Shown: piece after piece, positions 11,795 through 45,882 of the stretch | How the letters are laid out: every line of letters begins with the position of its first letter | Numbering within the stretch: the stretch's first letter is position 1 | Assembly (NCBI GenBank): GCA_024638285.1 | Contig: JAHEKP010000001.1 | Location: 9,093-73,092, forward strand | Origin: Cryomorphaceae bacterium | GTDB lineage: Bacteria > Bacteroidota > Bacteroidia > Flavobacteriales > Schleiferiaceae | Length of the DNA stretch: 64,000 nt | Direction of reading: 5' to 3' | Translations under genes and position numbers: made by a program | The notes under the pieces: model-generated | What the model saw: only the letters and a program-made list of their open reading frames with translations | What the model was told of the DNA's origin: nothing | Databases searched by the model: none

Positions 11795-11823
11795 GAATAA
11801 ACGTGGGCTCTTATAAAAAGTTT
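11795..11823 (-). promoter_or_regulatory. ECF-sigma-style promoter candidate upstream of the FeS-BCP / Cry-DASH / decarboxylase operon
   Basis: Minus strand reads AAAC - N16 - CGTTTATTC, then CATAA ATG. It sits between the upstream terminator and the start codon. Confidence 0.5.
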
Positions 11824-11827
11824 AGAC

Positions 11828-11855
11828 AAAAAAAAGGAGCCAATTTCTTGGCTCC
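11828..11855 (-). terminator. Rho-independent terminator after the lipoprotein gene
   Basis: GGAGCCAA (11836-11843) / TTGGCTCC (11848-11855) 8-bp stem with a 4-nt loop. On the minus strand it is followed by a T8 run (A-run 11828-11835 on plus). Confidence 0.8.
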
Positions 11856-11992
11856 GTACCCCTAACCTAATTCAAAGTTTCCTTTGAATAGGGTGAATAT
11901 AGAATAACTAATTGTATTTCAATGCGATGAGCAGGAAATTAGGGTAAAATACTTTTGTGTTTCGATTTAGACTAAGTATTAAATCTCAATGT

Positions 11993-12574
11993 TTATAAAT
12001 GCACTTTGAATGAGCGAACGACCTGCTCAAGGCATTTTTCGCGCATCAACGAAAACGAATCTGTTGGACAAGGCATTTGCAGTTCTAATAGCAGCCCATT
12101 GGACAAACTATCTCTTACAATCAATTTGTGACCTATGATGTAATCCTCAGGATCTTGTTCGTAGCGCCCGTATGTGATAAACCATTCTTCTACAGTGTCT
12201 TTTTTCTCAGTCACCCAGCTGTCTCGTTTCGCCTTCTGTATATCCATCATGATCTGTGCCGTACGTTGTTCGTCCATTGAAATGTAAGCGCCCTGTCTCT
12301 TGAAAGGATGTACTTTTAATAAGACACTTCCTGTACTATCGTCGTTGTAACGCGCGGCTTCATAGTAGTTGAAGTTTTGTTTGCCAAATTCAGGCATACG
12401 TACAAGGTAATCGTAGCTTAAATTAAAGCTAAAGTCTATGGGGGGAAGTGCGTAGTACTGTGCTTGTTCGAAATTAAACGTGTAGCGCGCATCAAGCTTA
12501 CAGCTATTTTCTTTTGAAGAACTGCAGCCCAGCAATAAGGCTGCAATCAATATTGCAATTATCTTCGCTTTCAT
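11993..12574 (-). CDS. Lipoprotein, unknown function
   Basis: Signal peptide with lipobox (IAALLLGCSSS). No recognisable domain. Confidence 0.6.
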   Translation of the reverse strand: MKAKIIAILIAALLLGCSSSKENSCKLDARYTFNFEQAQYYALPPIDFSFNLSYDYLVRMPEFGKQNFNYYEAARYNDDSTGSVLLKVHPFKRQGAYISMDEQRTAQIMMDIQKAKRDSWVTEKKDTVEEWFITYGRYEQDPEDYIIGHKLIVRDSLSNGLLLELQMPCPTDSFSLMREKCLEQVVRSFKVHL

Positions 12575-12575
12575 A

Positions 12576-14117
12576 ATGTCTGATCAATTCACATATTCAC
12601 TGCTTCCTCATGAGGAAACCGGCGTTCCTTCAAAAGTAATGAAGGACCTCATAGCCGGAGGAACTTTTCTGGAATCAATTGCGAAAGCTCCTTACCATTG
12701 GGAGTCTTTTGCAGCGCAAGCCAATGCTCAGATGAACTATTCTTCTGAGATTAGAGAAATTGTTGCGAAATCATTCGAGCACCAAAATGCCCATAGCACA
12801 CCATCAGAAAATGCTTCGATTGCTGCATTTCGCAGCGGTGCACTGAGTGTTACAACGGGGCACCAATTAATGGTATGTGGTGGAACAGTATTTTTTGAAG
12901 CTAAAGTTTTGGGTGCTGTGGCACTTGCAAAAGCAGCTTCTAAAGCACTCGGAGTAGATGTAGTTCCTATATTTTGGATGGCCACAGAAGATCACGATTT
13001 TGAGGAAATATCTAGCTTTAGCATAGGCCAGCACACATTCACTTGGGAGTATCCCGATGCTAAAGGTCCAGTGGGTTGTTTACCTACGGATGGTTTAGCG
13101 GAGCAATTAGAACATTGGCTCGAAAACGTGCCACTCAACGAGGCGCAGAGAAAACTGCTCCAACCTCGTCTTCAAGCCTACAAGGAATGCGGAAATCTTG
13201 CAGATGCGACCCGGCAATGGGTTCGCCAATGGTCGGAAGGATTAGGTCTTCTGGTCCTTGATGGACAGGACGCCACCTTAAAGGGGGCTGCAGCACCACT
13301 TTGGTCGGCAGAAATGGAGGGTGATTATTCGGAGCTCATTCACAAACAAACCGAAGCTTTGGTATCGAATGGCTATCAAGCTCAAGTATTCCCGCGTGAA
13401 ATCAATCTCTTTGATTTGCGCGATGGTGGCCGCCAGCGATTTGAGCAAGCGGATCATCGGTGTCCGCCAGAGCATATTAGTCCAAACGCCTTAATGCGCC
13501 CGTTGTATCAAGAGTATTTATTGCCAAATCTCGCTTATGTTGGTGGGGGAGGTGAACTTGCGTATTGGCTGCAACTTGGAGAAGCTTTCAAAAAAATGGA
13601 TCGACCAATGCCGGTGCTTTATCTACGTGATAGTCTGTTCATTCAAAACGCGAAACTGCAGCGTGCCTTAGATAAAATTGGACAACCGCTATCGGCCATA
13701 TTGAACCATTCTGTGGAGGCTTTAAAAAAGCAATTTATAGCGAATCATCTTTCTTTACAAGCAGAAGGGGAAGCCTTGCAACTGCCATTAGAGGCTGGTA
13801 TTGATCAATGGAATTCCTCGTTAAAATCGGCCTATCCAGAGTTGGAACAGCATGCACAAGCCTTGCGCGTGAAGATGATAAAACTAGCTCAACGTACCGC
13901 TGAGACTCGTTACAGGGCTCAAAAAAGACGTCATGCAGAAGTGATGGAGGCCGTTGATACGGTGTATGCGATGGTTTATCCTGATGGGGCGTTCTGGGAA
14001 CGAAAAGCATCCTATGCAGATCTTGTAGGCGCTTTAGGGGCTGATCCTCGAGACGAAATCGTTGAAAACATGTCAGCAATAAAGGCAGGAACTTGGGTGC
14101 TGAGCAGTAAAAAATAG
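12576..14117 (+). CDS. bshC: Bacillithiol biosynthesis cysteine-adding enzyme BshC
   Basis: About 510 aa, with a FWMATEDHDFEEI motif and the overall BshC-like layout. Called from memory of the family. Confidence 0.7.
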   Translation: MSDQFTYSLLPHEETGVPSKVMKDLIAGGTFLESIAKAPYHWESFAAQANAQMNYSSEIREIVAKSFEHQNAHSTPSENASIAAFRSGALSVTTGHQLMVCGGTVFFEAKVLGAVALAKAASKALGVDVVPIFWMATEDHDFEEISSFSIGQHTFTWEYPDAKGPVGCLPTDGLAEQLEHWLENVPLNEAQRKLLQPRLQAYKECGNLADATRQWVRQWSEGLGLLVLDGQDATLKGAAAPLWSAEMEGDYSELIHKQTEALVSNGYQAQVFPREINLFDLRDGGRQRFEQADHRCPPEHISPNALMRPLYQEYLLPNLAYVGGGGELAYWLQLGEAFKKMDRPMPVLYLRDSLFIQNAKLQRALDKIGQPLSAILNHSVEALKKQFIANHLSLQAEGEALQLPLEAGIDQWNSSLKSAYPELEQHAQALRVKMIKLAQRTAETRYRAQKRRHAEVMEAVDTVYAMVYPDGAFWERKASYADLVGALGADPRDEIVENMSAIKAGTWVLSSKK

Positions 14118-14120
14118 TGG

Positions 14121-14128
14121 TATTTTTG
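14121..14128 (+). promoter_or_regulatory. Bacteroidetes -7 box upstream of guaA
   Basis: TATTTTTG, ending only 4 nt before the ATG at 14133. Confidence 0.35.
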
Positions 14129-14132
14129 CTGG

Positions 14133-15662
14133 ATGCAAGAAACCATTTTGATCCTCGACTTCGGTTCACAATACACGCAGCTTATTGCGCGTAGGGTTCG
14201 TGAACTCAATGTATATTGTGAAATCCATCCGTTTAATAACCCGCCAGAAATCACTTCAGATGTTAAAGGCGTTATCCTGAGCGGTTCACCCTACAGCACA
14301 CTTCAAGAAGATGCCCCTCAGTTTGACCTGAGTGGGATTAAAGGCAACCTCCCCCTTTTAGGAGTCTGTTATGGTGCCCAGTACATGGCCCTAACTTCAG
14401 GAGGTAAAGTTGCACCTAGTGAAATTCGTGAGTACGGTCGTGCCAATCTTAGCGCAGTCTCCTCCTCAGATACCTTGTTTGGAGGCGTTAATGAAGGTTC
14501 TCAGGTCTGGATGAGTCACGGTGATACGATCATGGAACTTCCAGAAGGTTTTGAGATCATTGCCTCAACACACGATGTGCGTGTCGCGGGCTATAAGGTA
14601 AATGATGAGCCTACGTACGGCATTCAGTTCCACCCTGAAGTCTATCATAGTACAGACGGGACGCAGTTACTAAAAAATTTCCTGTACGATATCGTTGGAG
14701 TAGTGGGCGACTGGACACCCGCACATTTTGTCGATGAAACGGTTGCCGCTCTGAAAGAGCAGTTGGGCACTGATAAGGTCGTTCTTGGTTTAAGTGGCGG
14801 TGTGGATAGTTCGGTTGCCGCCATGTTATTACACAAGGCAATAGGGAAAAATTTGTATTGCATCTTTGTGAATAACGGCTTACTGCGCAAGAACGAATTC
14901 ACGGATGTGCTCAAGCAATACGAAGGAATGGGATTGAATGTAAAAGGTGTGGACGCATCGGACCAATTCCTTTCTGCACTTGCAGGAATGGAAGAACCCG
15001 AAGCTAAGCGCAAAGCCATAGGCCGAGTATTTATTGAAGTTTTTGATCAAGAAGCACATTTGATTGAAGATGTCACATGGTTAGCTCAGGGTACAATCTA
15101 TCCAGATATTATTGAGAGTATTAGCGTAAACGGTCCTTCAGCAACCATAAAAAGTCACCACAACGTCGGTGGTTTACCTGATTTCATGAAACTGAAAGTA
15201 GTTGAGCCATTGAAGACCTTATTCAAGGATGAAGTGCGTCGTGTTGGCGCATCAATGGATATGGCCGCAGAACTTTTAGGACGTCACCCTTTTCCAGGTC
15301 CTGGTCTAGCTATCCGCATTTTAGGTGATATCACTGCGGAAAAAGTTGCTATTTTACAAGAGGTTGATTACATCTTCATTCAAGGACTCAAGGACGAAGG
15401 TCTTTATGATCGCGTTTGGCAGGCGGGGAGTATTTTGCTTCCTGTGAATTCTGTGGGAGTAATGGGCGATGAACGTACCTATGAAAAAGTGGTAGCATTG
15501 CGTGCGGTAGAAAGTACAGATGGCATGACTGCGGACTGGGTACACTTACCATATGAGTTTCTTGCGAAAGTGAGTAATCAAATTATTAATAAGGTTAAAG
15601 GTGTGAACCGGGTTGTATATGATATCAGCTCAAAACCACCAGCCACGATCGAATGGGAATAA
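14133..15662 (+). CDS. guaA: GMP synthase (glutamine-hydrolysing)
   Basis: N-terminal GATase ([27 protein letters not shown]), ATP-PPase SGGVDSSV motif, C-terminal PPATIEWE. Confidence 0.95.
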
Positions 15663-17183: not shown

Positions 17184-17212
17184 GAACAAAAACAGTTCTG
17201 CTTCGTTTTATA
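17184..17212 (+). promoter_or_regulatory. ECF-sigma-style promoter candidate upstream of bcp-crtZ-cyclase
   Basis: GAAC (17184-17187) - N16 - CGTTTTATA (17204-17212), 21 nt before the bcp ATG. Confidence 0.5.
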
Positions 17213-17232: not shown

Positions 17233-17700
17233 ATGCCCAATAACCCCATAAGAGTAGGCGATGCATTGCCTGAATTTACCCTAGTAGATCAAAGCAATAC
17301 GCCCGTTAGTACCGCAGATTTTAAAGGTCAGCCGCTAGTTATTTTCTTTTATCCAAAAGACCATACGCCGGGTTGTACAGCACAAGCTTGTGATTTTAGA
17401 AATTACGAAAGTGAATTTCAGGCTGTTGGTGCTCAGGTAATAGGTATTAATGAAGCCTCTGTAGAATCGCACAAGGGATTTGCAGCTAAACACAACCTAA
17501 AGTATCCCATTCTCAGTGATCCGGGTCACAAGGTGAGAAAGTCCTTTGGCGCTCCTGGTCTGTTGTTCAACACTGTAGCGAACAGAATCACCTATGTAAC
17601 TGATGATAACCATCGGGTAGTTTATATCTTTAAAAGTCTTTTGCGTGCAACCGATCATGTGGAAGAAAGTTTGGCTTTTTTAAAATCAGTAGTAAAATGA
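17233..17700 (+). CDS. bcp: Thiol peroxidase / peroxiredoxin Bcp
   Basis: FFYPKDHTPGCTAQAC peroxidatic Cys motif, about 155 aa. I chose the ATG at 17233 (MPNNPIRVGD). The stop overlaps the crtZ start (ATGA at 17697-17700). Confidence 0.85.
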   Translation: MPNNPIRVGDALPEFTLVDQSNTPVSTADFKGQPLVIFFYPKDHTPGCTAQACDFRNYESEFQAVGAQVIGINEASVESHKGFAAKHNLKYPILSDPGHKVRKSFGAPGLLFNTVANRITYVTDDNHRVVYIFKSLLRATDHVEESLAFLKSVVK

Positions 17701-18164
17701 CAACCCTTGAATTTTTCTTGACGTTGCTGACCTTCTTTGTTATGGAGGGTGTGGCTTGGGCTGCACATAAGTACCTGATGCATGGATTCTTGTGGTTCTT
17801 ACATGATGACCATCACACCAAAACTCCGGGCGCACTGGAAAAGAATGATACGTTCTTTCTCATTTTCGCCATACCCTCATGGCTCTGCATCATGCTCGGT
17901 CTGATGTATGGCGCGGGTATTAGCGTTGCTATAGGTGCGGGTATAGCGCTTTATGGTTTTGCATATGCCATGGTCCACGAATTATTTATTCATCAACGCA
18001 TTCCGTTATTCAAACAGACAAAATCTACCTATCTTGAAGCCATACGTCTTGCCCACAAAATGCACCATAGGCACTTAGGTAAAGAACATGGGGAAAACTT
18101 TGGAATGCTGTGGGTCCATCCTAAATACATTAAACAAGTACGTGCTTTACGTGCTCAATCATAA
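17697..18164 (+). CDS. crtZ: Beta-carotene 3-hydroxylase
   Basis: Collinear with Pantoea-type CrtZ: AHKYLMHG, HDDHH, MVHELFIHQR, AHKMHHRH histidine boxes. Confidence 0.9.
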   Translation: MTTLEFFLTLLTFFVMEGVAWAAHKYLMHGFLWFLHDDHHTKTPGALEKNDTFFLIFAIPSWLCIMLGLMYGAGISVAIGAGIALYGFAYAMVHELFIHQRIPLFKQTKSTYLEAIRLAHKMHHRHLGKEHGENFGMLWVHPKYIKQVRALRAQS

Positions 18165-18170
18165 CTGTTT

Positions 18171-18878
18171 GTGTTAGAAACAAAATGGCTATATCTGTTG
18201 CTCAATCTGGGGACACTGACTGTTCCCTTATTGCGCAGTTTTGAGCCAAGGATTGCGTATTACAAAACATTTGGTTCGCTGGCAAAGTCCATGCTAATCA
18301 TTAGCAGTTTTTTTATCGTTTGGGATATTGGGTTTACTGAATGGGGTGTTTGGGGCTTTACCCCAGCTTATTTAAGTGGGATCTATCTTTTCGGTTTACC
18401 GCTCGGTGAATACCTCTTTTTTATTACCGTTCCCTTTGCCTGTATTTTCATTTACAAGTGCATGGAGCTTTTCTTCCCAAAGGGAATAATCACAGCAAAT
18501 TTAGCAGGGAAAATTTCTCAATTACTCATCCCATTCTGCTTGGCCGTAGGAATTCTATCTTACGACAAGAGTTACACCGCATCTACTTTTATTTTGTTAG
18601 GACTTTCGCTAATCTACGTCAGCTGGATTGCGAAATGCAGTTGGTTGCCTCGCTTTTACGAGAGTTATGCGGTTTCATTGATTCCCTTTTTTTTGAAAAA
18701 TGGTATTCTAACGGGCTCATTTCTAGAGACACAGGTAGTATGGTACAATAACAACGAAAATTTGAGAATTCGACTAGGTACGATCCCATTTGAAGATGTT
18801 TTCTATGGCATGCTCCTCATTCTAGGCACCTTGTTTTTTTATGAAAGATTCGAAGCGACCCGAAAGAGCCGTCTTTAA
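18171..18878 (+). CDS. Lycopene cyclase domain protein (fused CrtYc/CrtYd heterodimeric type)
   Basis: 235 aa polytopic membrane protein with two half-repeats, each carrying a PxE(E/D)-like motif (LPLGEYLFF; IPFEDVFYG). GTG start. Confidence 0.7.
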   Translation: MLETKWLYLLLNLGTLTVPLLRSFEPRIAYYKTFGSLAKSMLIISSFFIVWDIGFTEWGVWGFTPAYLSGIYLFGLPLGEYLFFITVPFACIFIYKCMELFFPKGIITANLAGKISQLLIPFCLAVGILSYDKSYTASTFILLGLSLIYVSWIAKCSWLPRFYESYAVSLIPFFLKNGILTGSFLETQVVWYNNNENLRIRLGTIPFEDVFYGMLLILGTLFFYERFEATRKSRL

Positions 18879-19666: not shown

Positions 19667-20236
19667 TTATTGGAATCGGCCCACGAGTCTGAAGTAGTCC
19701 TTAAATACTTCAAAATTCGCTTTTTCATTCCCTTGCGTGCCATAAAGCAATAATGAATCTTGACCTTGTACTATGAACGCACGGTGGTATTCAAAGGCGT
19801 TTTGAAAGAGTAAGGCGGCTAATTGGTAATGCTGTTCAAAGTCCATCTTATCCAGATAGATGTTCACTACGTTGGTATCTACGCGAACGGTTACCGTATC
19901 TCTAAAAAACTTTCTTGCGCTTGGTTCAGCGACAATGTAGGCTTCATCTGCACGCCAGTTATTAACTATTGCAAAGTTCAGGAAGGGTACCGTAGTATCT
20001 CTGAGGCATTTTAAAGATCGGTGCGTTTTGAAACCTTGTGCAGTCAGCTCTGTTCTTTCGTCGGTGCGGTACTTATAGATACGTGTATTGTTGAAGAAAA
20101 TCTCATCACTTTCTAGCACAGAATAATCCGCAGGTGCTCGCCAATCAATAAGTTTGTGTTCATAAGGCCATATAATGGTAAGCAGTACAATGGCGCCAAT
20201 AAATGCGAGTGCGTAGGTATAGAGTTTCTTTTCCAC
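19667..20236 (-). CDS. Membrane-anchored hypothetical protein
   Basis: GTG start, N-terminal TM helix (YALAFIGAIVLLTIIW), no recognisable domain. Its stop abuts the TerC stop with 0 nt between them. Confidence 0.5.
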   Translation of the reverse strand: MEKKLYTYALAFIGAIVLLTIIWPYEHKLIDWRAPADYSVLESDEIFFNNTRIYKYRTDERTELTAQGFKTHRSLKCLRDTTVPFLNFAIVNNWRADEAYIVAEPSARKFFRDTVTVRVDTNVVNIYLDKMDFEQHYQLAALLFQNAFEYHRAFIVQGQDSLLLYGTQGNEKANFEVFKDYFRLVGRFQ

Positions 20237-20240
20237 GATA

Positions 20241-20272
20241 GAACAACAATATCAATTCATGCTTGTTTATTA
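20241..20272 (+). promoter_or_regulatory. ECF-sigma-style promoter candidate (TGT variant) upstream of the crtD-like gene
   Basis: GAACAAC (20241-20247) - N16 - TGTTTATTA (20264-20272). Confidence 0.35.
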
Positions 20273-20294: not shown

Positions 20295-21782
20295 ATGTCT
20301 ACATCTTCAAGTACAGTCGCAGTGGTTGGTGCGGGAATTGCGGGACTCAGTGCGGCAATACGATTAGCTGCATCGGGCAAGAAGGTCATCGTATTTGAAC
20401 AAAATTCATATACAGGTGGAAAAGTAACTGCATTTGAGAAGAAAGGTTTTCGTTTTGACATGGGGCCTTCGTTGTTTACACTACCTTATTTGGTGGATGA
20501 ATTGTTTGAGATGGCAGGGAAAAATCCTCGTGACTATTTCAACTACCATACGCATGATGAAGTGTGTCGTTATTTTTGGGAGGATGGAATGAAACTTACA
20601 TTATATCCTTCAATAGATAAAAACGAAGCAGCAGTTGCCTCTGTTTTTGGACACTCTGAAGGAAAAAAAATGCGTGATTACTTTGAACGAGCACGCATTA
20701 AGTATGATTTAACGGCGCCTTTTTTTCTTGAAAAGAGTTTGCACAGAATTGGGACATTCTGGACTCCAGCAGTGATTAAAGTACTAAAAGAAATCCCAAG
20801 ACTTGGTTTGTTTTCAACGTTACATGAAGAAAACGAAAAAGTGTTTAATTCGCCGAAGTTGGTTCAGTTGTTTAATAGATACGCTACGTACAATGGGTCT
20901 TCTCCTTATCAAACTCCGGGAATCATGCAAATGATCACGCATTTGGAGCACAATCTAGGTACCCACTTTCCTGTTGGAGGGATGCACGAAATTTCACAAA
21001 GTTTAACCCGTTTGGCGGTAGAGTTGGGTGTCCAATTTGAATTAAATACGAAGGTTGAAGAGCTTACCATTGAAAATAACGAAATTACTGGGCTCAAAGC
21101 GGAAGGTAAACCTTGGCGGGTGGATCAATTGGTATGTAATACCGATGTGAAGCACGCTTATCAATACCTTATGCCAAAGGGGGTAAAGCGTCCCAAAAAG
21201 ACCCTTGCACAAGAGCCTAGTTCAAGTGCGCTTATATTTTATTGGGGATTAACTGCCCAGTTTCCAGAACTGGATCTTCACAATATCATCTTTAGTGAGG
21301 ATTACAAGACAGAATTCGATCATATTCAAATGAATGGACCGTTTTGGGAAGACCCTACAGTTTACATTCATATTTCAAACAGACTAGAACCGGCAGATGC
21401 GCCAGACGGCAAGGACTGTTGGTTTGTTATGGTCAATACACCTTACGATCAAGGCCAAAACTGGGATGATATCGTTCCATTGGTCCGTGAAAAAGTCCTA
21501 GAACGAATTTCTCGTATCCTGGGAACTTCCGTTGAGCCACTTATAGAAGTTGAAGAAGTTTTGCGCCCAAAAGATATAGAACGTCGTACATCAAGTATAG
21601 GTGGAGCACTCTACGGAACCAGCTCAAATGATCGGCTTGCTGCATTTTTACGTCATTCCAATAAAAGCGACTCTGTTAAAGGGTTGTATTTTTGTGGAGG
21701 TTCAGCACATCCGGGAGGTGGTGTCCCACTTTGTTTATTAAGTGGTAAAATTGCAGCGGAATGGTTGATAGAAGAAGGTTAG
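20295..21782 (+). CDS. Phytoene desaturase family protein, CrtD-like (1-hydroxycarotenoid 3,4-desaturase candidate)
   Basis: FAD-binding VAVVGAGIAGLSAAIRLA...FEQNSYTGGK. GPSLFTLPYLVDELF...CRYFWEDG resembles the CrtD-type more than CrtI-type sequences I remember. It is followed immediately by a DUF422/CruF-like gene. Confidence 0.7.
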   Translation: MSTSSSTVAVVGAGIAGLSAAIRLAASGKKVIVFEQNSYTGGKVTAFEKKGFRFDMGPSLFTLPYLVDELFEMAGKNPRDYFNYHTHDEVCRYFWEDGMKLTLYPSIDKNEAAVASVFGHSEGKKMRDYFERARIKYDLTAPFFLEKSLHRIGTFWTPAVIKVLKEIPRLGLFSTLHEENEKVFNSPKLVQLFNRYATYNGSSPYQTPGIMQMITHLEHNLGTHFPVGGMHEISQSLTRLAVELGVQFELNTKVEELTIENNEITGLKAEGKPWRVDQLVCNTDVKHAYQYLMPKGVKRPKKTLAQEPSSSALIFYWGLTAQFPELDLHNIIFSEDYKTEFDHIQMNGPFWEDPTVYIHISNRLEPADAPDGKDCWFVMVNTPYDQGQNWDDIVPLVREKVLERISRILGTSVEPLIEVEEVLRPKDIERRTSSIGGALYGTSSNDRLAAFLRHSNKSDSVKGLYFCGGSAHPGGGVPLCLLSGKIAAEWLIEEG

Positions 21783-21783
21783 T

Positions 21784-22419
21784 ATGTTGAAAATAAAAGC
21801 GTTAATTAAGTCTTACGCGGGATGGATTTTGGTACTGTTCCATGTTATAGGCTTATTTTTACTGGGCGGCGAATGGCGAGAGGAATTGGTCGTATTGACG
21901 CCGTTTAATCTATTGTTGCTAGCTGCTTTGTTTCAATATACTTCAGAGCGGCCTACGGTCAAATGGGCGTATTACCTACCTATTCAGCTTGGATTTATCA
22001 TAGAACTGATAGGTACAAACACCGGATTTCCTTTTGGTGCCTATTCTTATGGAACGGCATTGGGCCCTGGCATTATGGGCACGCCTTTCATGATTGGAAT
22101 TTTGTGGTGGGTTCTGATTCGTTCGTTTTATGACCTTACAGGGTTCCGTTTCAATGCGGTTTGGGTACGAAGTATTCTAACAGGTCTAGCCATGACTGCG
22201 ATGGACGTATTGATAGAGCCTGTGGCTATTGAATTGGCCTATTGGCAATGGGACGCGGTTGCCGTGCCTATGGAAAACTACCTCGCCTGGTTTGTATTGA
22301 GTACGCTTTTTGCGCGTTTGACGGCTTCAGGCGATGCACGTAATCCTTTGAGTATCTGGGTTATTGTGGTGCTTTCGGTATTCTTTTTTGTTTTAGGATC
22401 GTTGTACGCGATACAGTAA
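21784..22419 (+). CDS. Carotenoid biosynthesis membrane protein (DUF422 / CruF-like 1',2'-hydratase candidate)
   Basis: 211 aa polytopic membrane protein, 1 nt downstream of the crtD-like gene. The family call rests on size, topology and context. Confidence 0.5.
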   Translation: MLKIKALIKSYAGWILVLFHVIGLFLLGGEWREELVVLTPFNLLLLAALFQYTSERPTVKWAYYLPIQLGFIIELIGTNTGFPFGAYSYGTALGPGIMGTPFMIGILWWVLIRSFYDLTGFRFNAVWVRSILTGLAMTAMDVLIEPVAIELAYWQWDAVAVPMENYLAWFVLSTLFARLTASGDARNPLSIWVIVVLSVFFFVLGSLYAIQ

Positions 22420-24902: not shown

Positions 24903-24971
24903 GAATCAGTGTATTTGTGGTAAAGATATATGCTAAAATAGGTACTATGCAATACAAAGTACTATAAATTT

Positions 24972-25019
24972 CTTAATCTCGAAGAATCAATACGCCAATA
25001 GGTCAAAAATGAGATTAAG
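24972..25019. repeat. 9-bp perfect inverted repeat with 30-nt spacer in the PadR-operon / CarF-like divergent intergenic region
   Basis: CTTAATCTC (24972-24980) and GAGATTAAG (25011-25019). AATGAGATT recurs as a direct repeat at 25008-25016 and 25071-25079. GTACTAT recurs at 24942-24948 and 24959-24965. Confidence 0.6.
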
Positions 25020-25134
25020 TTGTAGCGCTGTAATAGACTAAGGCCAATGGCGCGCCTATGCATTTCGCTCAATGAGATTTTCATAGGAAAGCATTGCGTT
25101 TTGTAGTGTTTAGTTTTCCCAAAATCAATTCATT

Positions 25135-25683
25135 ATGGTACTACTACAGATTATTATTGAAATTCTTTTATTGTATTTATTGTTGGATTTTTTAACTGGA
25201 GTAGTCCATTGGTGGATGGACCGCTACGGTCGAGAAGATATGCCTATTGTAGGAAAGGCTATTATTGAGATTAATACCTGGCACCACGCGAATCCGCGCA
25301 AGATGATTACGAGAAGTTATTGGTACTTGTGTAAATCTGGATGGGCCGGTGTAGCGGTCATGCTACTCGCGGTTTACCTTATACAAGGAGTGGTAGGTTG
25401 GCAATGGTGGTTCATCGCGATTTTGGGTGCAAATGCAAATATAGTGCACCAATGGGCGCATAAGTTTCCAGAGGAAAAGCCTAAACTCATACATTGGCTA
25501 CAGCAAATCAAGGTGCTTCAACGTCCACAAGATCATGCAATGCACCATACTAAACCCGAAACGCGCTCGTATTGTACATACACGCCATGGCTTAATCCTA
25601 TTTTAGATCGAACGAGGTTCTGGTACGCAGTGGAACGAGTGCTTTTCTCGTTCAAAATATATACGACGGATCGAGTTCATTAA
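25135..25683 (+). CDS. CarF / PEDS1(TMEM189) / FAD4-family membrane lipid desaturase, minimal form
   Basis: Eight His arranged H25, H50-H51 (WHHANP), H105xxxH109 (HQWAH), H134xxH137H138 (HAMHH), on a background of 3-4 TM helices. This is the His pattern I recall for the family. Confidence 0.7.
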   Translation: MVLLQIIIEILLLYLLLDFLTGVVHWWMDRYGREDMPIVGKAIIEINTWHHANPRKMITRSYWYLCKSGWAGVAVMLLAVYLIQGVVGWQWWFIAILGANANIVHQWAHKFPEEKPKLIHWLQQIKVLQRPQDHAMHHTKPETRSYCTYTPWLNPILDRTRFWYAVERVLFSFKIYTTDRVH

Positions 25684-28986: not shown

Positions 28987-29019
28987 GAAGCCTGCAAACA
29001 CCTTGCGGGCTTCTTTGTT
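28987..29019 (+). terminator. Rho-independent terminator after ettA
   Basis: GAAGCCTGCAA / TTGCGGGCTTC 11-bp stem (one G-U pair), 5-nt loop, followed by TTTGTT. Confidence 0.75.
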
Positions 29020-29052: not shown

Positions 29053-30204
29053 ATGAGAATTCAACTCAGTGATGAGCGCCAGGAAATGCTCGAAATGGTG
29101 CGTCAATCGGCCAAAGATTTTGCAGAGAAAAACATACGACCTAATGTCATGGAGTGGGATGAGAGTCAGCACTTTCCTGTTTCCTTGTTTAAGGAGATGG
29201 GCGCGCTTGGATTCATGGGCGTTTTAGTTCCTGAAGAATATGGGGGCGCTGGTCTTAGCTATCAGGAATACATCACTATCATTGACGAAATCGCCCAAGT
29301 TTGTGGTTCAATAGGGCTTTCTGTTGCTGCGCATAATTCACTTTGTACAGGCCATATTTTGCAGTTTGGTACGGAAGCGCAAAAGAAGAAATGGTTACCT
29401 AAGTTAGCTACCGCTGAATGGATTGGCGCTTGGGGACTCACCGAGACGGGTACAGGTTCTGATGCAGGTGGTATGGATACTACTGCTGTATTAGATGGCG
29501 ATCACTACGTGTTGAACGGTTCGAAAAATTGGATTACTCATGCTATTAGTTCTGAAATCGCTGTAGTCATTGCGCGAACAGGCGAAAAAGGTGATTCACA
29601 TGGAATGACCGCATTTGTAGTAGAGAAGAGTACCCCAGGTTTTACCGCTGGACAAAAAGAAAATAAATTGGGCATGCGCGCCTCAGAGACGGCTTGTTTA
29701 TTCTTTGATCAATGCCGTGTACCTAAAGAAAATATTTTGGGTAAGGTTGGAGACGGTTTTATTCAAGCCATGAAGATATTAGATGGAGGACGTATTTCAA
29801 TTGCCGCACTTTCCGTTGGAATTGCCCGCGGAGCAATGAATGCGGCTATCAGCTATGCAGATGAAAGGGTTCAGTTTGGCAAAAAAATTCGCTCGTTTCA
29901 AGGGGTAAGTTTTAAACTCGCGGAAATGTCAACTAAGGTCTATGCAGCAGAGTTGATGACTCGGCATGCGGGTGCTTTAAAGGAAGAAGGTAAACCCATG
30001 ACACAGGAAAGTGCCATGGCTAAATTGTACGCTTCGGAGATTTCAACAGAAGTAGCCAATGAAGCCGTTCAGGTATTTGGTGGTTACGGCTATACGAAGG
30101 ATTACCCTGTTGAGAAATTTTATCGTGATTGCAAGTTGTGTACCATTGGTGAGGGCACTTCTGAAATTCAAAAAGTGGTTATTTCGAGAAATCTATATCG
30201 ATAA
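29053..30204 (+). CDS. Acyl-CoA dehydrogenase (short/medium-chain type)
   Basis: [16 protein letters not shown], ...[34 protein letters not shown]. Confidence 0.9.
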
Positions 30205-30333
30205 TTTCTTTCCACCGCAGCGCTTGCTGCAATATTTGACATGCTCCCAATCTCGTTCCCATTTTTTGCGCCATGTGAAGGGTCTACCGCACGTGGCGCA
30301 AACTTTTTCGGGCAGGTGTTGTTTCTTATGCAT
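30193..30333 (-). CDS. DUF2256 zinc-ribbon small protein (46 aa)
   Basis: [43 protein letters not shown] matches the DUF2256 pattern (CxxC ... WRKKW ... YCSxRC). Only the last 46 codons of the track's 102-aa ORF are credible. It overlaps the acyl-CoA dehydrogenase 3' end by 12 nt. Confidence 0.75.
30300..30329 (+). promoter_or_regulatory. ECF-sigma-style promoter candidate (TGT variant) upstream of TIGR03643
   Basis: AAAC (30300-30303) - N16 - TGTTTCTTAT (30320-30329). It lies inside the DUF2256 coding region. Confidence 0.35.
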
Positions 30334-30336
30334 AAC

Positions 30337-30366
30337 TATAAAACGATTGCACACATTGAAAGGTTC
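30337..30366 (-). promoter_or_regulatory. ECF-sigma-style promoter candidate upstream of DUF2256
   Basis: Minus strand reads GAAC - N17 - CGTTTTATA, then GTT ATG. It lies inside the TIGR03643 coding start region. Confidence 0.5.
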
Positions 30367-40924: not shown

Positions 40925-42331
40925 ATGTTGAATCCACTCATTAGTAAGTTTCGCAAACACGCATTAACGGCAGTTCTTACTGCTGCTGTGCTTGGTGCTC
41001 TGTTACTGCAATTGAATTTACTCTCTGGTGAATTGGAATTACAAAAGCAGCAGTTTGATTCAGATGTCAGTGCAACTGCCTCTGCTATTAATGAACGGGT
41101 TCGCCTGTATGTTAAAAGAAAAAGTACTGGGGCACTGAAACGCAGTACTTCTAGTGATTCTACAGTGACTATAAATACTCCGATGGGTACAACCACATTG
41201 CGGTGGTCGGCTACACAGGGGGCAGTGCCTTATGGTTCAGGGTTTGGAATGGATACTACCATGATTTCAGGATTTCTAGATGATTTTCAAAGTTCTTTGC
41301 CATGGGAAACGCTTATTTCTTCGGCAGAAATGGACAGCTTGTTGCAAAGTGAATTACGTGTCCATGGAATCCGTACTGCGCCTAAATGGGCCATAATTGA
41401 GAACGGGTATTTAAACAGTTTACTCAGTGATTCCTTTGAGACGGACAAGGTCTCGTACAACTTCGTTTTAGCAGAAAGCTTTTTCGGCCCTACACGTCAG
41501 TTGCTGATGTATTTTCCTTCTGGTAAATTCTATTTAGCATCGCGTGTTTACCTCAATCTCTTTGTGACTTTACTGTTCTCCACGGTCATTTTATTTGCTT
41601 TTTTTAGTGTGCAGCGCCAAGGGCGTAAACAAAAACGTTTAGCAGCAGTAAAGAGCGATTTCATCAGCAATATGTCTCATGAATTCAAGACACCGCTCGC
41701 GACGATCAGTTTAGCCGTGGATGCCTTGTTGCGCAATGGAGAGCAAATGAATGCAGAACAAATGCGGCAGTATTTGGGCATTATAAAGAGCGAGAATAAG
41801 CGAATGAATGCGCAGATGGAAAGCGTTTTACAAATGTCCATGATGGATAAGGAAGAATTGACCCTCACAGTGGCTCCTATGGATTTAGAAGCCTGTTTAC
41901 GTGAAGCTGTCGACCATTTTAAACTCACAGCTGAACAACGTCAAGGATGGATAGATTTAAGCTGTGAAGCTGGCGAATACCGCATGGAAGGAGATTTAAT
42001 TCAATTCAAAAGTGCGCTGACCAACCTCATCGATAATGCCATTAAATACAGTCTGGATGCGCCGCATGTAAGCGTGAAATTGGACCAAACTGCAACGGAA
42101 TATAGAATTAGGGTTAAAGACCGTGGCATTGGTATGGATGAGGAAATACAGCGACAAGTTTTTGACCGATTTTATCGTGCCACAAAAGGGAATATTCATG
42201 ATGTGAAAGGACACGGTTTAGGCCTTTCCTTCGTTAAAGAAATTATACAAAAGCACGGTGGTAGCATTCATGTGGATAGTGCTCTCAATGTTGGGACCAC
42301 CTTTACGGTGGTATTACCGAAAAACGAATAA
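40925..42331 (+). CDS. Sensor histidine kinase (two TM segments, HisKA + HATPase_c)
   Basis: H-box SNMSHEFKTPLATI, N-box LIDNAIKYS, G-boxes DRGIGM / GHGLGLS. No PAS, LOV, BLUF or other photosensor motif recognised. Confidence 0.9.
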   Translation: MLNPLISKFRKHALTAVLTAAVLGALLLQLNLLSGELELQKQQFDSDVSATASAINERVRLYVKRKSTGALKRSTSSDSTVTINTPMGTTTLRWSATQGAVPYGSGFGMDTTMISGFLDDFQSSLPWETLISSAEMDSLLQSELRVHGIRTAPKWAIIENGYLNSLLSDSFETDKVSYNFVLAESFFGPTRQLLMYFPSGKFYLASRVYLNLFVTLLFSTVILFAFFSVQRQGRKQKRLAAVKSDFISNMSHEFKTPLATISLAVDALLRNGEQMNAEQMRQYLGIIKSENKRMNAQMESVLQMSMMDKEELTLTVAPMDLEACLREAVDHFKLTAEQRQGWIDLSCEAGEYRMEGDLIQFKSALTNLIDNAIKYSLDAPHVSVKLDQTATEYRIRVKDRGIGMDEEIQRQVFDRFYRATKGNIHDVKGHGLGLSFVKEIIQKHGGSIHVDSALNVGTTFTVVLPKNE

Positions 42332-42333
42332 CT

Positions 42334-43023
42334 ATGGAAAAGCAGCGAATCTTATTAGTTGAGGATGATGTGAATTTTGGCAATATGCTTAAAGACACAC
42401 TGGATTTTAATGACTACGAGGTGACGCTCGAACGCGATGGTGTTCAGGGCTTACGCGCATACAAACAAGGCACTTATGAATTGTGCATTTTTGATATCAT
42501 GATGCCGAAGAAAGATGGCTTGACTTTAGCCACCGAGGTAAAGGAGATTGATAATGGACAGCCACTGATTTTTCTAACCGCCAAAGGGCAAAAGGAAGAC
42601 ATCATTGCAGGGTACAGCGCTGGAGCTGATGATTATTTGGTAAAGCCTTTTGATACAGATGTTTTACTCTATAAGATTCAGGCAATCATTGGTCGTAAAG
42701 CAGCTGAAATGGACGAAGAGCCTGATACGTTGAACATAGGGAGCTTTATTTTAGAGCCGAAAATTCGTCAGTTAAGTCGCGAGGATGAATTGGTTCGATT
42801 GAGTCCTAAAGAAAGTGACCTTTTAAAAATGCTTATTCAACATAAGAACCAACTGATGCCAAGAAGCAAAGCACTTTTAAAGATTTGGCGCGAGGATAAC
42901 TACTTTACGGGACGTTCTATGGATGTTTATGTCGCTAAACTCCGTAAATATTTAAAGGTAGATGAGCGTATTCGGATAGAGAACGTTCATGGTGAAGGGT
43001 TCAGATTGGTCGAGGAAGCTTAA
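42334..43023 (+). CDS. OmpR-family response regulator
   Basis: Receiver domain (ILLVEDD...IFDIMMPKKDG...LTAKG) plus a winged-helix trans_reg_C (VYVAKLRKYL...IENVHGEGFRL). Confidence 0.9.
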   Translation: MEKQRILLVEDDVNFGNMLKDTLDFNDYEVTLERDGVQGLRAYKQGTYELCIFDIMMPKKDGLTLATEVKEIDNGQPLIFLTAKGQKEDIIAGYSAGADDYLVKPFDTDVLLYKIQAIIGRKAAEMDEEPDTLNIGSFILEPKIRQLSREDELVRLSPKESDLLKMLIQHKNQLMPRSKALLKIWREDNYFTGRSMDVYVAKLRKYLKVDERIRIENVHGEGFRLVEEA

Positions 43024-44483
43024 GATTTCCTTTTGCTGGGATTCACCAGTTTTTCTAGGATGTGTTTCGCCTCTTCCCTAGAAGCTTTTGTCTTTTTAAT
43101 GCTATAGAGTTGGTCGCTTGCATGTTTTCTTGCACGGGTAAGATCGACAATAGGGGTCTTTGGATAGCTCCCTGTATCCCATTGTTCCATTTCCCACATC
43201 ATCGGTGGAATGGCCCAGGGTTCATGCAAATGTGGTAAAGGCAAGTCCTTTAGTTCGGGCAGCCATTGCTTAATGAATTCACCCTTTGCGTCTTGGTCAT
43301 AGCTTTGCTTGATAGGGTTGTAAATACGGATGGTATTTACACCGGTGTAGCCGCTTTGCATTTGAAACTGCGTATAGTGAATGCCAGGTTCAAAATCTGT
43401 AAAGGTGCTGGCTAGGTAACGTGCACCAGCTTCCCATGGCAACCAGAGGTATTGACTGTAGAAGCTTACCACCATGGCGCGCATCCTAAAATTAAGATAG
43501 CCTGTTGCGGCTACACAACGCATACACGCATCGACTAAAGGAACACCTGTAGTGCCGTTTTTCCAAGCCTTAAATTTATCCTCATCCCAAATCTTTGATG
43601 CATCTATAGCAGCGTAAGCCCTATTTATAGGGTGGAATTCGTAGCTACAGACGCTTTCAAATTTCTGTATAAAATGTGCTTGCCAACGCAATCGATCGAC
43701 AAATGCGCGTTGGTTTCGCTTACTGCCCGCTAGCTCTACGACCTCTGCCATATGCCATATTTGACGAATACTGAGGTTCCCCCAGGCCAGATGCGGAGAA
43801 ATGCGACTGCATCCTTTTCGACTGGCTAATGGTTTTGAGATACTTTGGGCATAGCCTTTAATTCGCTCTGTAAGGAAGGAATATAGGACCCGCTCAGCGC
43901 GAGATGCGCCTCCCTTTTGAAAGTACGGATGGGGTTCATAGCTATGACTGTGTTGCCAAGATTCAAAGGGATTAGTAAGAGCTTGTTTGCATACGGCATC
44001 TAAATCAGTACGCAGTGGTGCAATATCTACATAGTCGTACCAATCTTTAAGCCAGTTTTTACGGTGTTTAAGCCCTCTTTTAACGCCACCGTAATCCCAT
44101 TCATTCCAGGAAATATCGTTGGAATCTAATAGATGCTTAACGGCCTTATCTCGCTTAAAAGTTTTATCGATCCCCGTTTCTCGGTGACTGTAAACGGCCT
44201 TTACAGTGTAGTTAGCTAGACAATGCTTAAAAAAATCCACTGCCTCCACGTTTAAAAAGTAAACGACTTCTTTACCAGCAACTTCATTCAGGTCTTTAAT
44301 AGAATCCCAAATAAATCGTTCATGCCGCGGGTCGTATGGTTTTTCGCTCCATAGCAATGGTTCATAGAGTGCTACAAAAAAAACCGATTCTCCAGCAGCT
44401 AAAGCGCTTCGAATGGGGGCATGGTCGTGCCATCTAAAATCGCGTTTAAACCAAACAATATGAATGGATTGCTTAGCCGTCAC
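43020..44483 (-). CDS. Divergent cryptochrome/photolyase family (CPF) protein, class not assignable by eye
   Basis: N-terminal photolyase alpha/beta fold (IVWFKRDFRWHDHAP) and a C-terminal FAD-binding domain (GVPLVDACMR...GYLNFRMRAMVVSF...IRIYNPIKQSYDQD...WLPEL). It has atypical RLRWQAHFIQKFE and TDFEPGIHYTQFQMQSG segments. Confidence 0.8.
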   Translation of the reverse strand: MTAKQSIHIVWFKRDFRWHDHAPIRSALAAGESVFFVALYEPLLWSEKPYDPRHERFIWDSIKDLNEVAGKEVVYFLNVEAVDFFKHCLANYTVKAVYSHRETGIDKTFKRDKAVKHLLDSNDISWNEWDYGGVKRGLKHRKNWLKDWYDYVDIAPLRTDLDAVCKQALTNPFESWQHSHSYEPHPYFQKGGASRAERVLYSFLTERIKGYAQSISKPLASRKGCSRISPHLAWGNLSIRQIWHMAEVVELAGSKRNQRAFVDRLRWQAHFIQKFESVCSYEFHPINRAYAAIDASKIWDEDKFKAWKNGTTGVPLVDACMRCVAATGYLNFRMRAMVVSFYSQYLWLPWEAGARYLASTFTDFEPGIHYTQFQMQSGYTGVNTIRIYNPIKQSYDQDAKGEFIKQWLPELKDLPLPHLHEPWAIPPMMWEMEQWDTGSYPKTPIVDLTRARKHASDQLYSIKKTKASREEAKHILEKLVNPSKRKS

Positions 44484-45102
44484 TTTTAGTTGATTTTACT
44501 TCTGGAAAGGGGAGTTGTGCGATGGATTGTGGTGTAAAATAATGTTGCAATCCCAGTGCCAATAGAGGCGGTTTCTCGAAGTGTAAAGTGCGGTCTCTAC
44601 GTAGTAGGGCATCACCTAATCCTACGTTTTGAACGCGACCTACAGTATATATGCAATCGTTTTTCAGCTTAAAACTTTCCTCCCATTCCAATTCTACTGC
44701 CCACAAGGCAGTAGTTGGTATAGGATGGGTCCATCCCGCTATAACCTCGCAATGCCCTTCCAAATGCTCCCATTCAAATAGTTCTGCGTGGTAAGAAGCG
44801 CTGCAATCATGCAGTCGCTGCATTTCCTCTTCCGGGAGTGCGACTAGGGTGATGCGTTTGAATTTTTGATAATTGGTATAGGAATGTCTATTGCCATTAT
44901 CTGGTCGGAATAAGATACTCATACAAGCCGGGTTGGCTCCAACGTGTGTAACATTGGTAAAGACACCCGCATTCCAATTACCGTCTATACCTGATAGTGC
45001 GAGAAAGGCCGTACGCACACCAGAAACGGCATTCACTAGTCCAGTGCGCTCGCTACGTTCAAGACCGTCTAATGCTGCTGCTGTAAACGATTCCTTCCAC
45101 AT
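44473..45102 (-). CDS. Flavin reductase-like (FMN-binding split-barrel) protein
   Basis: LVNAVSGVRTAFLALSGIDGNWNAGVFTNVTHVGANPACMSILFRP resembles the flavin reductase domain core. It overlaps the CPF gene by 11 nt and lies 2 nt from the SDR gene. Confidence 0.55.
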   Translation of the reverse strand: MWKESFTAAALDGLERSERTGLVNAVSGVRTAFLALSGIDGNWNAGVFTNVTHVGANPACMSILFRPDNGNRHSYTNYQKFKRITLVALPEEEMQRLHDCSASYHAELFEWEHLEGHCEVIAGWTHPIPTTALWAVELEWEESFKLKNDCIYTVGRVQNVGLGDALLRRDRTLHFEKPPLLALGLQHYFTPQSIAQLPFPEVKSTKSDG

Positions 45103-45104
45103 GG

Positions 45105-45791
45105 TTAAAGTACGCTCTGTCCACCGTCAATATGAACGATCTGACCTGTCATCCAACTGCTTTTTTCGCCCAGTAGGAATGCTGCCATCTCAGCAATATC
45201 AGCTGCTTCGCCAACACGTTTCATTGGGTTATTCGCCCCAATCGCGTCCTTCTTTTCCGGAGTACTTAGCAGTTTTGATGCTAACGGGGTATCAGTAAGG
45301 CTCGGTGCGATGCAGTTGATGCGTGCTTTCGGCGCCCACTCTGAAGCAATGGCGCGAGTCAATCCCTCGATCGCCCCTTTTGATGTGCTCACTGTAGCAT
45401 GAAAAGGCATTCCACGTTGAACGGCAACTGTGGAGAACAAAACGCAAGACGCGATGCTTTCTTTATTGAAGTTCTTTTGCGCAGCCTGAAGGGCTTTAAT
45501 GGCGCCCATGACTTGCAACTGAAAATCTGCTTCAAAAACCTCTGGTTTTAGTCCACGGAATGGTTTTAGGTTGATCGAGCCAACACTGTACATGAGTCCG
45601 TCAATATTTTCCGGCATAATGTCGTCCCAAGAATCCGTGAGTACATCAAACTCTTCCCATTCAATAGTGTGTGCAGGTCCTTCATAAGGCGTTCTGCTAA
45701 ATACCGTGATTTGGTGTCCTTCTGAGGCGAGTAGTTCAGCTGTTGCTTTACCAATTCCTTTGCTTCCGCCAACGATTACGTAGTGTTTCAT
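45105..45791 (-). CDS. Short-chain dehydrogenase/reductase (SDR)
   Basis: VIVGGSKGIGKATAELLA cofactor motif, a predicted S...YxxxK-type catalytic region, 228 aa. Confidence 0.85.
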   Translation of the reverse strand: MKHYVIVGGSKGIGKATAELLASEGHQITVFSRTPYEGPAHTIEWEEFDVLTDSWDDIMPENIDGLMYSVGSINLKPFRGLKPEVFEADFQLQVMGAIKALQAAQKNFNKESIASCVLFSTVAVQRGMPFHATVSTSKGAIEGLTRAIASEWAPKARINCIAPSLTDTPLASKLLSTPEKKDAIGANNPMKRVGEAADIAEMAAFLLGEKSSWMTGQIVHIDGGQSVL

Positions 45792-45851
45792 AGTTACTTA
45801 TTCTAAGATTCTAAACCCAATTTTGGCATCAAGGTTCGCAGTTGTGCGGTA

Positions 45852-45882
45852 TTAAAGACGATGTGGCGTACTTTGTGGTTCC
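45852..45882 (-). promoter_or_regulatory. ECF-sigma-style promoter candidate upstream of the SDR / flavin-reductase-like / CPF operon
   Basis: Minus strand reads GGAAC - N17 - CGTCTTTAA, about 60 nt upstream of the SDR ATG. Confidence 0.5.

Follow-up and report, generated by a model that had tools for sequence, protein, structure and literature searches.

A conserved bipartite element upstream of photolyase and carotenoid genes in Schleiferiaceae resembles an ECF-type promoter

Photolyase- and carotenoid-related transcription units in a 64,000-nt stretch of a Cryomorphaceae bacterium genome (Bacteroidota, Flavobacteriales, Schleiferiaceae; assembly GCA_024638285.1, contig JAHEKP010000001.1; the whole stretch is hereafter the window) shared an upstream element, (A/G)AAC-N17/18-(T/C)GTT(T/A), whose invariant parts were AAC and GTT. 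The element was conserved across related genomes, stood at characteristic distances from start codons, and occupied spacers that had no box for the housekeeping sigma factor, sigma-A. We consider it probable that the element is the -35/-10 promoter of a photoprotection and oxidative-stress regulon, read by an extracytoplasmic function (ECF, group IV) sigma factor and belonging to the class of PM2, a promoter motif of Bacteroides thetaiotaomicron. The control by sunlight of DNA photorepair, carotenoids, and peroxide defence is poorly understood in non-phototrophic Bacteroidota, and the Schleiferiaceae, which are uncultured, turned up repeatedly among the sampled metagenome contigs, marine and otherwise.

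Photo units and related loci

Pfam and NCBIfam searches of the window proteins agreed with the gene calls of a preliminary description of this DNA. The photo units comprised the FeS-BCP(DPRP)-CryDASH-decarboxylase operon (11789..7689, minus strand; the decarboxylase is pyridoxal phosphate (PLP)-dependent), the Bcp/PrxQ-crtZ-lycopene cyclase unit (17233..18878, plus strand), the crtD-CruF-like unit (20295..22419, plus strand), DUF2256 (30333..30193, minus strand), DUF2805/TIGR03643 (plus strand, TTG start at 30356), and an operon of a short-chain dehydrogenase/reductase (SDR), a flavin-reductase-like protein, and a cryptochrome/photolyase family (CPF) photolyase (45791..43020, minus strand). 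With the FeS-BCP protein as query we retrieved 19 loci (L001-L019) from metagenome-assembled genomes of Schleiferiaceae/Cryomorphaceae (Flavobacteriales), at 66-92% identity and with synteny kept. Relatives overall came to ~118 target loci (1.4 Mb), including L039-41, in which the SDR was 83% identical.

Definition and enrichment of the element

An unbiased enumeration of 64 x 64 x 10 = 40,960 trinucleotide-spacer-trinucleotide motifs, with 18 clade-representative upstream regions set against a 1.3-Mb background, placed AAC-N18-GTT (10/18 regions, 0.16 expected) and AAC-N17-GTT (8/18, 0.22 expected) at the top ranks, and together the two covered all 18 regions. We built a position matrix from 30 clade-representative sites. 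AAC was invariant in 30/30 of them, GTT was also invariant, and the spacer was only 17 or 18 nt. The base preceding GTT varied (T in 18, C in 6, G in 5, and A in 1), and it was this variable base that the preliminary description had read as the C/T of a YGT box. The base preceding AAC was A, G, or C but never T; Bcp, SDR, and DUF2256 had G, FeS-BCP and DUF2805 had A, and crtD had C. AAC was followed by n-T-T (T at +2 in 21/30 and at +3 in 20/30, no G at +1 to +3), which resembles GGAACTT. In every unit AAC and GTT were fixed while the spacer sequence had diverged across Schleiferiaceae clades.

Within the window, AAC-N17/18-GTT preceded 6/6 photo units and 7/46 other genes by no more than 100 nt (Fisher p = 8e-5), and two of those seven were reverse readings of photo sites. 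The longer form AAC-N17-GTTT occurred 19 times; only four of these matches lay between genes in the right orientation and at most 150 nt from a start, and all four were at photo units. The preliminary description had proposed AAC-N16/17-CGT ahead of every photolyase and carotenoid unit. As a motif this occurred 51 times on the two window strands, about the chance rate, and was replaced by AAC-N17/18-GTT; a common element did precede all six units, although in another register and, at the SDR operon, at another site. All six strings quoted there were present, and five were conserved elements, kept at orthologous loci with diverged spacers, but the fourth was not. The group IV layout that it recognised stands for the AAC -35 half and the rigid spacer, while the -10 half is GTT and not CGT. 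Two near misses had been rightly set aside: the TerC leader (AAC-N16-CGATTT) was without GTT and had no AAC-N17/18-GTT match, and the match in the histidine kinase leader was not conserved. An AAC/GTT match inside crtZ was rejected as chance, since it too was not conserved.

Since so loose a motif is found about as often as chance predicts, significance must rest on position and conservation. The first motif with its 51 matches, the presence of AAC-N17/18-GTT in 4.3% of random 100-nt windows, the unconserved chance matches in crtZ and the histidine kinase leader, and the overlap of several sites with other constrained features would all suit an element without function, produced by base composition, by post hoc motif choice, or by the conservation of terminators, coding sequence, or an RNA gene. 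We find such an origin hardly credible given the top rank among 40,960 motifs and the association within the window. Moreover, the Bcp, crtD, and SDR sites, which have no overlapping feature, kept their spacing while their spacers diverged, and the element recurred in other classes exactly 11 nt from a start codon, where our own rough base-frequency estimate puts the chance of finding it at one given position at ~3e-4.

Individual sites

FeS-BCP. The element was at 11800..11822 on the minus strand (TAAAC...CGTTTA, AAC-N17-GTT), with the G of GTT at 11802, 13 nt from the ATG at 11789. TAAAC and nGTT(T/A)A were fixed in 19/19 Schleiferiaceae loci, and the intervening 17-18 nt were wholly different.

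Bcp. The plus-strand element at 17185..17207 read GCGAAC-N17-GTTTTA (G at 17205, 28 nt from the ATG at 17233). Close relatives had GCGAACAAAA, a variable spacer, and TCGTTyTA, and clades B-D had TAAAC-N18-GTTGTA despite a different genomic context.

crtD and u189. A single element at 20245..20267 could be read on both strands. In the plus direction it was CAAC-N17-GTTTA, with G at 20265, 30 nt from the crtD ATG at 20295; in the minus direction it was AAAC-N17-GTTG, exactly 11 nt from the GTG of u189 at 20236. Three clades kept CAAC-N17-GTTT(A/T) while their spacers diverged. The gene u189 (20236-19667, minus strand) encoded 189 aa with a hydrophobic N-terminal stretch, had no match in Pfam or NCBIfam, and stood beside crtD in all clades.

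DUF2256 and DUF2805. The DUF2256 element was on the minus strand at 30342..30365 (GAAC-N18-GTTTTA; G at 30344, 11 nt from the ATG at 30333), and four clades had GAAC-N17/18-GTT, with 11-13 nt to the ATG. The DUF2805 element was on the plus strand at 30301..30323 (AAAC-N17-GTTTC), with G at 30321, 35 nt from TTG-30356. This gene had no in-frame ATG; its TTG start gains support from homologues annotated as 97 aa long, at 100% coverage. AAC-N17-GTTT was kept here in four clades, but the site lies within codons 4-11 of DUF2256 and its conservation is therefore partly confounded by coding constraint. The two elements (30301-30365) faced each other, each embedded in the opening codons of the opposite gene; the transcription starts predicted from them (~30332 rightward and ~30333 leftward) would coincide or overlap by 1-2 bases.

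SDR. The element at 45814..45836 on the minus strand, GCGAAC-N17-GTTTAGAA, 25 nt from the ATG at 45791, replaces the fourth site of the preliminary description and lay 45 nt downstream of it. It was kept in L039-41 with a diverged spacer; in close relatives the spacer was wholly conserved, so the comparison is uninformative there. The rejected site (45852..45882, minus strand, GGAAC-N17-CGTC) was kept only in close relatives, and both GGAAC and CGTC were lost in L039-41. Read in reverse, the SDR element was AAAC-N17-GTTC, 62 nt upstream of hutH. This histidine ammonia-lyase gene (45896-47413, plus strand, above the NCBIfam cutoff) stood divergent to the SDR-CPF operon in every Schleiferiaceae locus. 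Since the product of hutH, urocanate, is a UV absorber, co-regulation of hutH with the operon is conceivable.

Acyl-CoA dehydrogenase. A candidate seventh site preceded the acyl-CoA dehydrogenase (ACAD) gene beside DUF2256, at 28997..29019 on the plus strand (CAAAC-N17-GTTATCTT, 36 nt from the ATG at 29053). CAAAC-N17/18-GTTATCTT was kept in four clades (L104, L107, L108, and L110). Its AAC sat within the loop of a terminator hairpin upstream of the gene, and changes in the hairpin stem were compensatory. ACAD is a possible extra member of the regulon, with no obvious link to photobiology.

RNA-like block. Directly 5' of the FeS-BCP element, whatever the upstream gene, was a block of ~65 nt (11826-11893, minus strand) that was 100% identical in 19/19 Schleiferiaceae loci (L001-L019) and was preceded by an invariant CTATATT. 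It comprised a hairpin (AUUCAAAGG-nAA-CUUUGAAU), a single-stranded UAGGUUAGGGGUAC, and a terminator hairpin with U8, and its folding z was -4.0. In Rfam the block matched no family, with either gathering or E-value thresholds (the Bacteroidetes small RNA FopS was non-significant at E = 9.6), was not a tRNA, and had no second copy among related loci. It is a candidate for a novel small RNA or for a leader/attenuator of the photolyase operon.

PadR spacer. Another strongly conserved block lay in the spacer (24903-25134) between the u155-PadR-PspC operon and a lipid desaturase gene, with equivalents in L104, L106, L108, and L110. It contained a short GTACT...AGTAC inverted repeat (AGGTACTATGCAATACAAAGTAC), which may be a candidate PadR operator.

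Contrast with sigma-A promoters

Housekeeping genes of the window (accC, hisS, guaA, guaB, sucC, dnaE, and trxA) carried the sigma-A -7 box TAnnTTTG 12-47 nt upstream, whereas 0/6 photo-unit spacers did, confirming the contrast drawn in the preliminary description. At FeS-BCP, where 35 nt separated the upstream terminator from the ATG, TAnnTTTG was absent. Because they have no sigma-A -7 box, the photo units would stay silent until an alternative sigma factor is released.

Distance to the start codon

Measured from the G of GTT, start-codon distances fell into two classes. The short class comprised FeS-BCP (11 nt in N18 clades, 12-13 nt in N17 clades), DUF2256 (11-13 nt, compensated as in FeS-BCP), u189, for which the crtD element is read in reverse (exactly 11 nt in 6/6 sequences from three clades), and, in clades B-D, a von Willebrand factor A (vWA) protein gene divergent from Bcp (exactly 11 nt in 6/6). 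At FeS-BCP and DUF2256 the switch between spacers of 17 and 18 nt was offset by the start distance, and AAC to ATG stayed at 32-33 nt. The vWA protein had 365 aa (L006:1033, L008:2026, L015:1052, and L017:2041), and there was no such gene at this place in the clade of the window. The long class comprised Bcp, crtD, SDR, DUF2805, and ACAD, at 25-36 nt in the window and up to ~64 nt in other clades.

Promoters of sigma-H in Mycobacterium tuberculosis carry GGAAYA at -34..-29 together with G-11 T-10 T-9 (10.1101/534826). The sigma-H/E promoters of Corynebacterium glutamicum are GGAAC-N18-19-GTT, and some of their targets start 0-1 nt from the start codon, i.e. they are leaderless (PMC10012870). 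The short class matches this G-11 geometry, and leaderless ECF promoters are expected to look so. If the transcription start lies ~11 nt past the G of GTT, the distance of sigma-H-type ECF promoters, the mRNAs of FeS-BCP, DUF2256, and u189 would be leaderless, and those of Bcp, crtD, SDR, and DUF2805 would have 15-25-nt leaders.

Occurrence beyond Schleiferiaceae

AAC-N17/18-GTT was present in 9/49 non-redundant photo-gene upstream regions of non-Schleiferiaceae loci against the 4.3% background (p = 2e-4), and the recurrence at photolyase-linked genes included Saprospiria and other Bacteroidota. In Mucilaginibacter, spacers between divergent SDR and DUF2256 genes carried GTAAC-N17-GTTC, and the G-to-start distance of FeS-BCP was 11 nt. 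AAC-N17-GTT lay exactly 11 nt from the DUF2805 ATG in L115, L117, and L118, which represent Lewinellaceae and two other lineages. In L115 and L118, DUF2805 and DUF2256 shared one symmetric element, CGAAAC-N17-GTTCGG in the former and TTGAAAC-N17-GTTTCAA in the latter, where it was 11 nt from DUF2805 and 12 nt from DUF2256.

AT-rich Flavobacteriia-like metagenome loci instead had an inverted repeat, TTGTATA-N~18-TATACAA (core TGTATA-N18-TATACA), at their photolyase clusters (L047:2317, L058:9782, L090:4856, L094:1684, L055:400, L061:2384, and L070:1026). It was positioned between CPF/DUF2256 genes and a divergent pair of YceI-like and thioredoxin-like genes, and these loci had no regulator gene adjacent, the neighbour being YceI-like. 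The cis-regulation of the photolyase gene set thus differs between lineages, with different Flavobacteriia placing the same genes under an apparently ECF-type promoter or a TGTATA-N18-TATACA palindrome.

Symmetry of the element

AAC and GTT are reverse complements, and the centres of the two halves were 20-21 nt apart. It follows from this self-complementarity that a single element in a divergent spacer can serve as promoter for either direction. It also makes a symmetric operator the main rival, in which a dimeric transcription factor binds the AAC and GTT halves ~two helical turns apart and represses or activates both divergent genes; candidates for that factor are an unlinked regulator or the regulon member DUF2805. 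Extended palindromes at FeS-BCP (TAAAC-N17-GTTTA), L118, and L115 suit an operator, as do the divergent-spacer positions at u189/crtD, SDR/hutH, DUF2256/DUF2805, and Bcp/vWA and the operator-like TGTATA-N18-TATACA repeat at photolyase clusters of other Flavobacteriia. The halves were nevertheless not mirror images. In the 30-site matrix the reverse-complemented right half lacked n-T-T, the outer base was A, G, or C beside AAC but A, T, or C on the other half, and this asymmetry tracked gene orientation. A factor bound to such an operator would have no sigma-A promoter to modulate at its targets, and it offers no rationale for the fixed 11-13 nt to the start codon across classes, which equals the ECF -10-to-start distance. 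The 17/18-nt spacer flexibility with compensation in ATG distance is promoter-like, and the matching motif of B. thetaiotaomicron lies at -30/-10 of mapped transcription starts. We therefore regard an operator as unlikely, although it draws some support from the search for a regulator that follows.

Search for the regulator

The preliminary description had placed the genes for the sigma factor and its anti-sigma outside the window, and we indeed found neither with Pfam and NCBIfam among essentially all window open reading frames; regulators were limited to one PadR and one histidine kinase/OmpR pair. The ~7 kb past the right end of the window and the neighbourhoods of targets in ~118 loci had none either; the left-end extension was a 3.6-kb contig only. 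A tblastn search of all related loci (1.4 Mb) with ECF probes gave a sole match, an unrelated ECF gene in L087, 6 kb from CPF. Near the Mucilaginibacter clusters were TetR and AraC genes, but none for a sigma factor.

The lack of a sigma gene among the target loci would fit an operator, and so would the features of DUF2805. This small helical protein had a weak match to Pfam NirdL-like_HTH, a helix-turn-helix (HTH) family (E = 0.006), and its AlphaFold2 model (pLDDT 71.5) had weak neighbours among sigma region-4/HTH domains; against this, all fold matches in a Foldseek search of the PDB were non-significant (best E = 2.9), and phmmer against the PDB found nothing. DUF2256 resembles a zinc ribbon. 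A role for DUF2805 and DUF2256 as regulators in an operator model is speculative, and more speculative still is that this ubiquitous photolyase-linked pair of an HTH-like protein and a zinc ribbon forms a regulatory module at the half-sites.

A proposed photoprotection regulon

We favour a promoter in which AAC-n-T-T would be the -35 half and GTT the -10, read by an alternative group IV sigma factor. The dispersed regulon would include three photolyase/cryptochrome operons (FeS-BCP-CryDASH-decarboxylase, SDR-flavin-reductase-like-CPF, and DUF2256 with DUF2805), crtZ-cyclase, crtD-cruF-like, and Bcp, and probably u189 and the acyl-CoA dehydrogenase. By analogy, the sigma factor would be released by an anti-sigma that senses light or photo-oxidative stress. 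The element, its conservation and geometry, and the lack of sigma-A boxes were observed directly; the promoter identity, the use of a single ECF sigma, and the light/oxidative signal are what we infer from them, and for the one sigma and for photo-oxidative or light induction, the evidence is gene content. With ACAD, u189, and the vWA protein of other clades, the regulon is probably wider than photobiology.

Several points weigh against this interpretation. The self-complementarity of AAC/GTT is compatible with a symmetric operator, and neither a sigma nor an anti-sigma gene stood next to the targets in ~118 loci. Some sites coincide with other constrained features (the DUF2805 site with DUF2256 codons, the DUF2256 -35 with DUF2805 codons, and the ACAD site with a terminator), and the FeS-BCP -35 abuts the 100%-conserved RNA-like block. 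Orthologous sites share phylogeny, so their counts are not independent and are overstated, to which the diverged spacers and the recurrence across classes are an answer. Support for the predicted transcription starts in the Schleiferiaceae lineage is indirect and comes from start-codon distances. The identity with PM2 follows from a verbal description (near-palindromic, -30/-10, TGTT), and because PM2 is seemingly read by several ECF sigma factors, "one sigma" is not established.

This last point bears on whether the element is instead a promoter of a non-ECF sigma (e.g. a second RpoD-like factor) or of several ECF sigmas, with units that do not form one light regulon. Dokdonia genomes have a second RpoD homologue of unassigned promoter specificity (PMC3587595), PM2-like promoters of B. 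thetaiotaomicron have been assigned to no fewer than two ECFs from different groups and are found at hundreds of starts, the base before AAC differs by unit (G, A, or C), and ACAD and vWA have no obvious photobiology. We nonetheless judge this quite improbable, as an AAC -35 with a GTT -10 and a rigid spacer is the group IV hallmark and the functions of the gene set hang together, with carotenoid genes and a peroxiredoxin beside three CPF operons; the intergenic, oriented, start-proximal AAC-N17-GTTT matches of the window were found only there. The related genomes also appear small (contigs of ~1.0-1.2 Mb), and few sigma factors would be expected in them.

A bolder form of the preferred reading is a single phylum-wide ECF sigma that uses the self-complementary AAC-N17-GTT to fire both ways, with transcription starting on the start codon and giving leaderless mRNAs. 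We think this doubtful; if true, it would give PM2 an ancestral role as the promoter of a photoprotection/oxidative regulon. As it stands, the element provides a testable regulon definition (position weight matrix, predicted starts, and predicted leaderless mRNAs) for metagenomes and diel metatranscriptomes, and it links PM2 of gut Bacteroides with the conserved photolyase-associated set of SDR, flavin-reductase-like protein, DUF2256, and TIGR03643. The missing regulator would be an ECF sigma, possibly ECF114-like. The leaderless geometry, and a self-complementary promoter used in both directions, would matter more widely if confirmed.

Comparison with known systems

The preliminary description had drawn parallels to RpoE-ChrR, CarQ-CarR-CarF, and LitS. 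There is a functional likeness to these systems, but their defining genes were not found in the regions covered here. Other light-responsive regulators, the MerR-type repressors LitR/CarH/PhrR, govern genes for photolyases and carotenoids in many non-phototrophs. Their palindromic operators recall the TGTATA-N18-TATACA repeat at photolyase clusters of other Flavobacteriia. In contrast, the Schleiferiaceae element is a bipartite 3+3-nt motif with a variable spacer and no overlapping sigma-A promoter, and the window had no MerR or B12-binding domain.

CarQ-CarR-CarF of Myxococcus xanthus and LitS of Streptomyces coelicolor, like the system proposed here, place carotenoid genes behind an ECF-type promoter. 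In Myxococcus, CarF is a plasmanylethanolamine desaturase whose plasmalogen product relays light and singlet oxygen to CarR-CarQ. The window encoded a lipid desaturase of the CarF/TMEM189 family (25135-25683, plus strand; PF10520, E = 3e-36). This was a family relative only, since it scored 84 bits against the cutoff of 500 for the CarF equivalog NCBIfam NF045946; it had no AAC/GTT element upstream and was missing in one clade (L106/L107). Unlike in the CarQ/CarR and LitR/LitS systems, no such regulatory genes were seen here, and the main targets were photolyases and not crt genes alone.

Photolyases of proteobacteria are also accompanied by SDR, flavin-reductase-like, DUF2256, and TIGR03643 genes, and the ECF11 promoter sequence differs from AAC-N17-GTT. 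RpoE-ChrR (ECF11) controls a singlet-oxygen regulon in Rhodobacter sphaeroides and other alpha- and gammaproteobacteria (PMC6852236), and shares with our proposal a dispersed regulon under one ECF sigma, photolyase included. It differs in that no rpoE-chrR-like operon was present in the window or any target neighbourhood, and the core furan/cyclopropane fatty-acid genes of that regulon (PMC6852236) were absent from the window.

The sigma-H, sigma-R, and sigma-E factors of Actinobacteria, which are controlled by zinc-binding anti-sigma (ZAS) proteins, recognise GGAA(C/T)-N18-19-GTT. The similarity extends to the AAC...GTT core, the near-equal rigid spacing, G-11 T-10 T-9, leaderless targets, and thiol-oxidative stress regulons with thioredoxin/peroxiredoxin-type genes. 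However, these systems belong to another phylum, the GG of GGAAC is not kept in our element, the spacer here averages one base less, neither a ZAS anti-sigma nor a sigma gene was found, and the targets here are photolyase and carotenoid genes.

The nearest known counterpart is within the phylum. A literature search found no light or ECF regulon directly described for Flavobacteriia/Bacteroidota. Nevertheless, the view in the preliminary description that no equivalent is known in Bacteroidota does not stand, as PM2 of B. thetaiotaomicron was already known (PMC7366714) and was linked to ECF factors late in 2025 (PMC12596196). Differential RNA sequencing defined PM2 as a near-palindrome whose two boxes lie at -30 and -10 relative to mapped transcription starts (Ryan et al. 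2020, PMC7366714); it was ~40-fold enriched for oxidative-stress genes, and its factor was unassigned then (PMC7366714) and still "elusive" in early 2025 (PMC11697453). PM2-like promoters have TGTT at ~-10, and the promoters of the SigH-1 (ECF114) and SigW-1 (ECF251) regulons fit the -30/-10 motif (PMC12596196, BtModulome). PM2 is unlike our element in being generic (hundreds of starts, several ECFs) and not tied to photolyase/carotenoid genes or light, and 5' untranslated regions of <10 nt make up only 3.7% in B. thetaiotaomicron, whereas many targets here look leaderless. The likenesses are a near-palindromic pair of boxes ~20 nt apart (20-21 nt between the AAC and GTT centres), TGTT at ~-10 (T before GTT in 18/30 of our sites), oxidative-stress genes as targets (here Bcp/PrxQ, carotenoid genes, and photolyases), distinctness from the sigma-A TTTG/TAnnTTTG promoter with proposed ECF recognition, and antisense and divergent starts in B. 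thetaiotaomicron, which fit bidirectional use. Compared by verbal description only, the element fits every feature of PM2 that is given in words, and on that basis we infer that the two belong to the same class of promoter.

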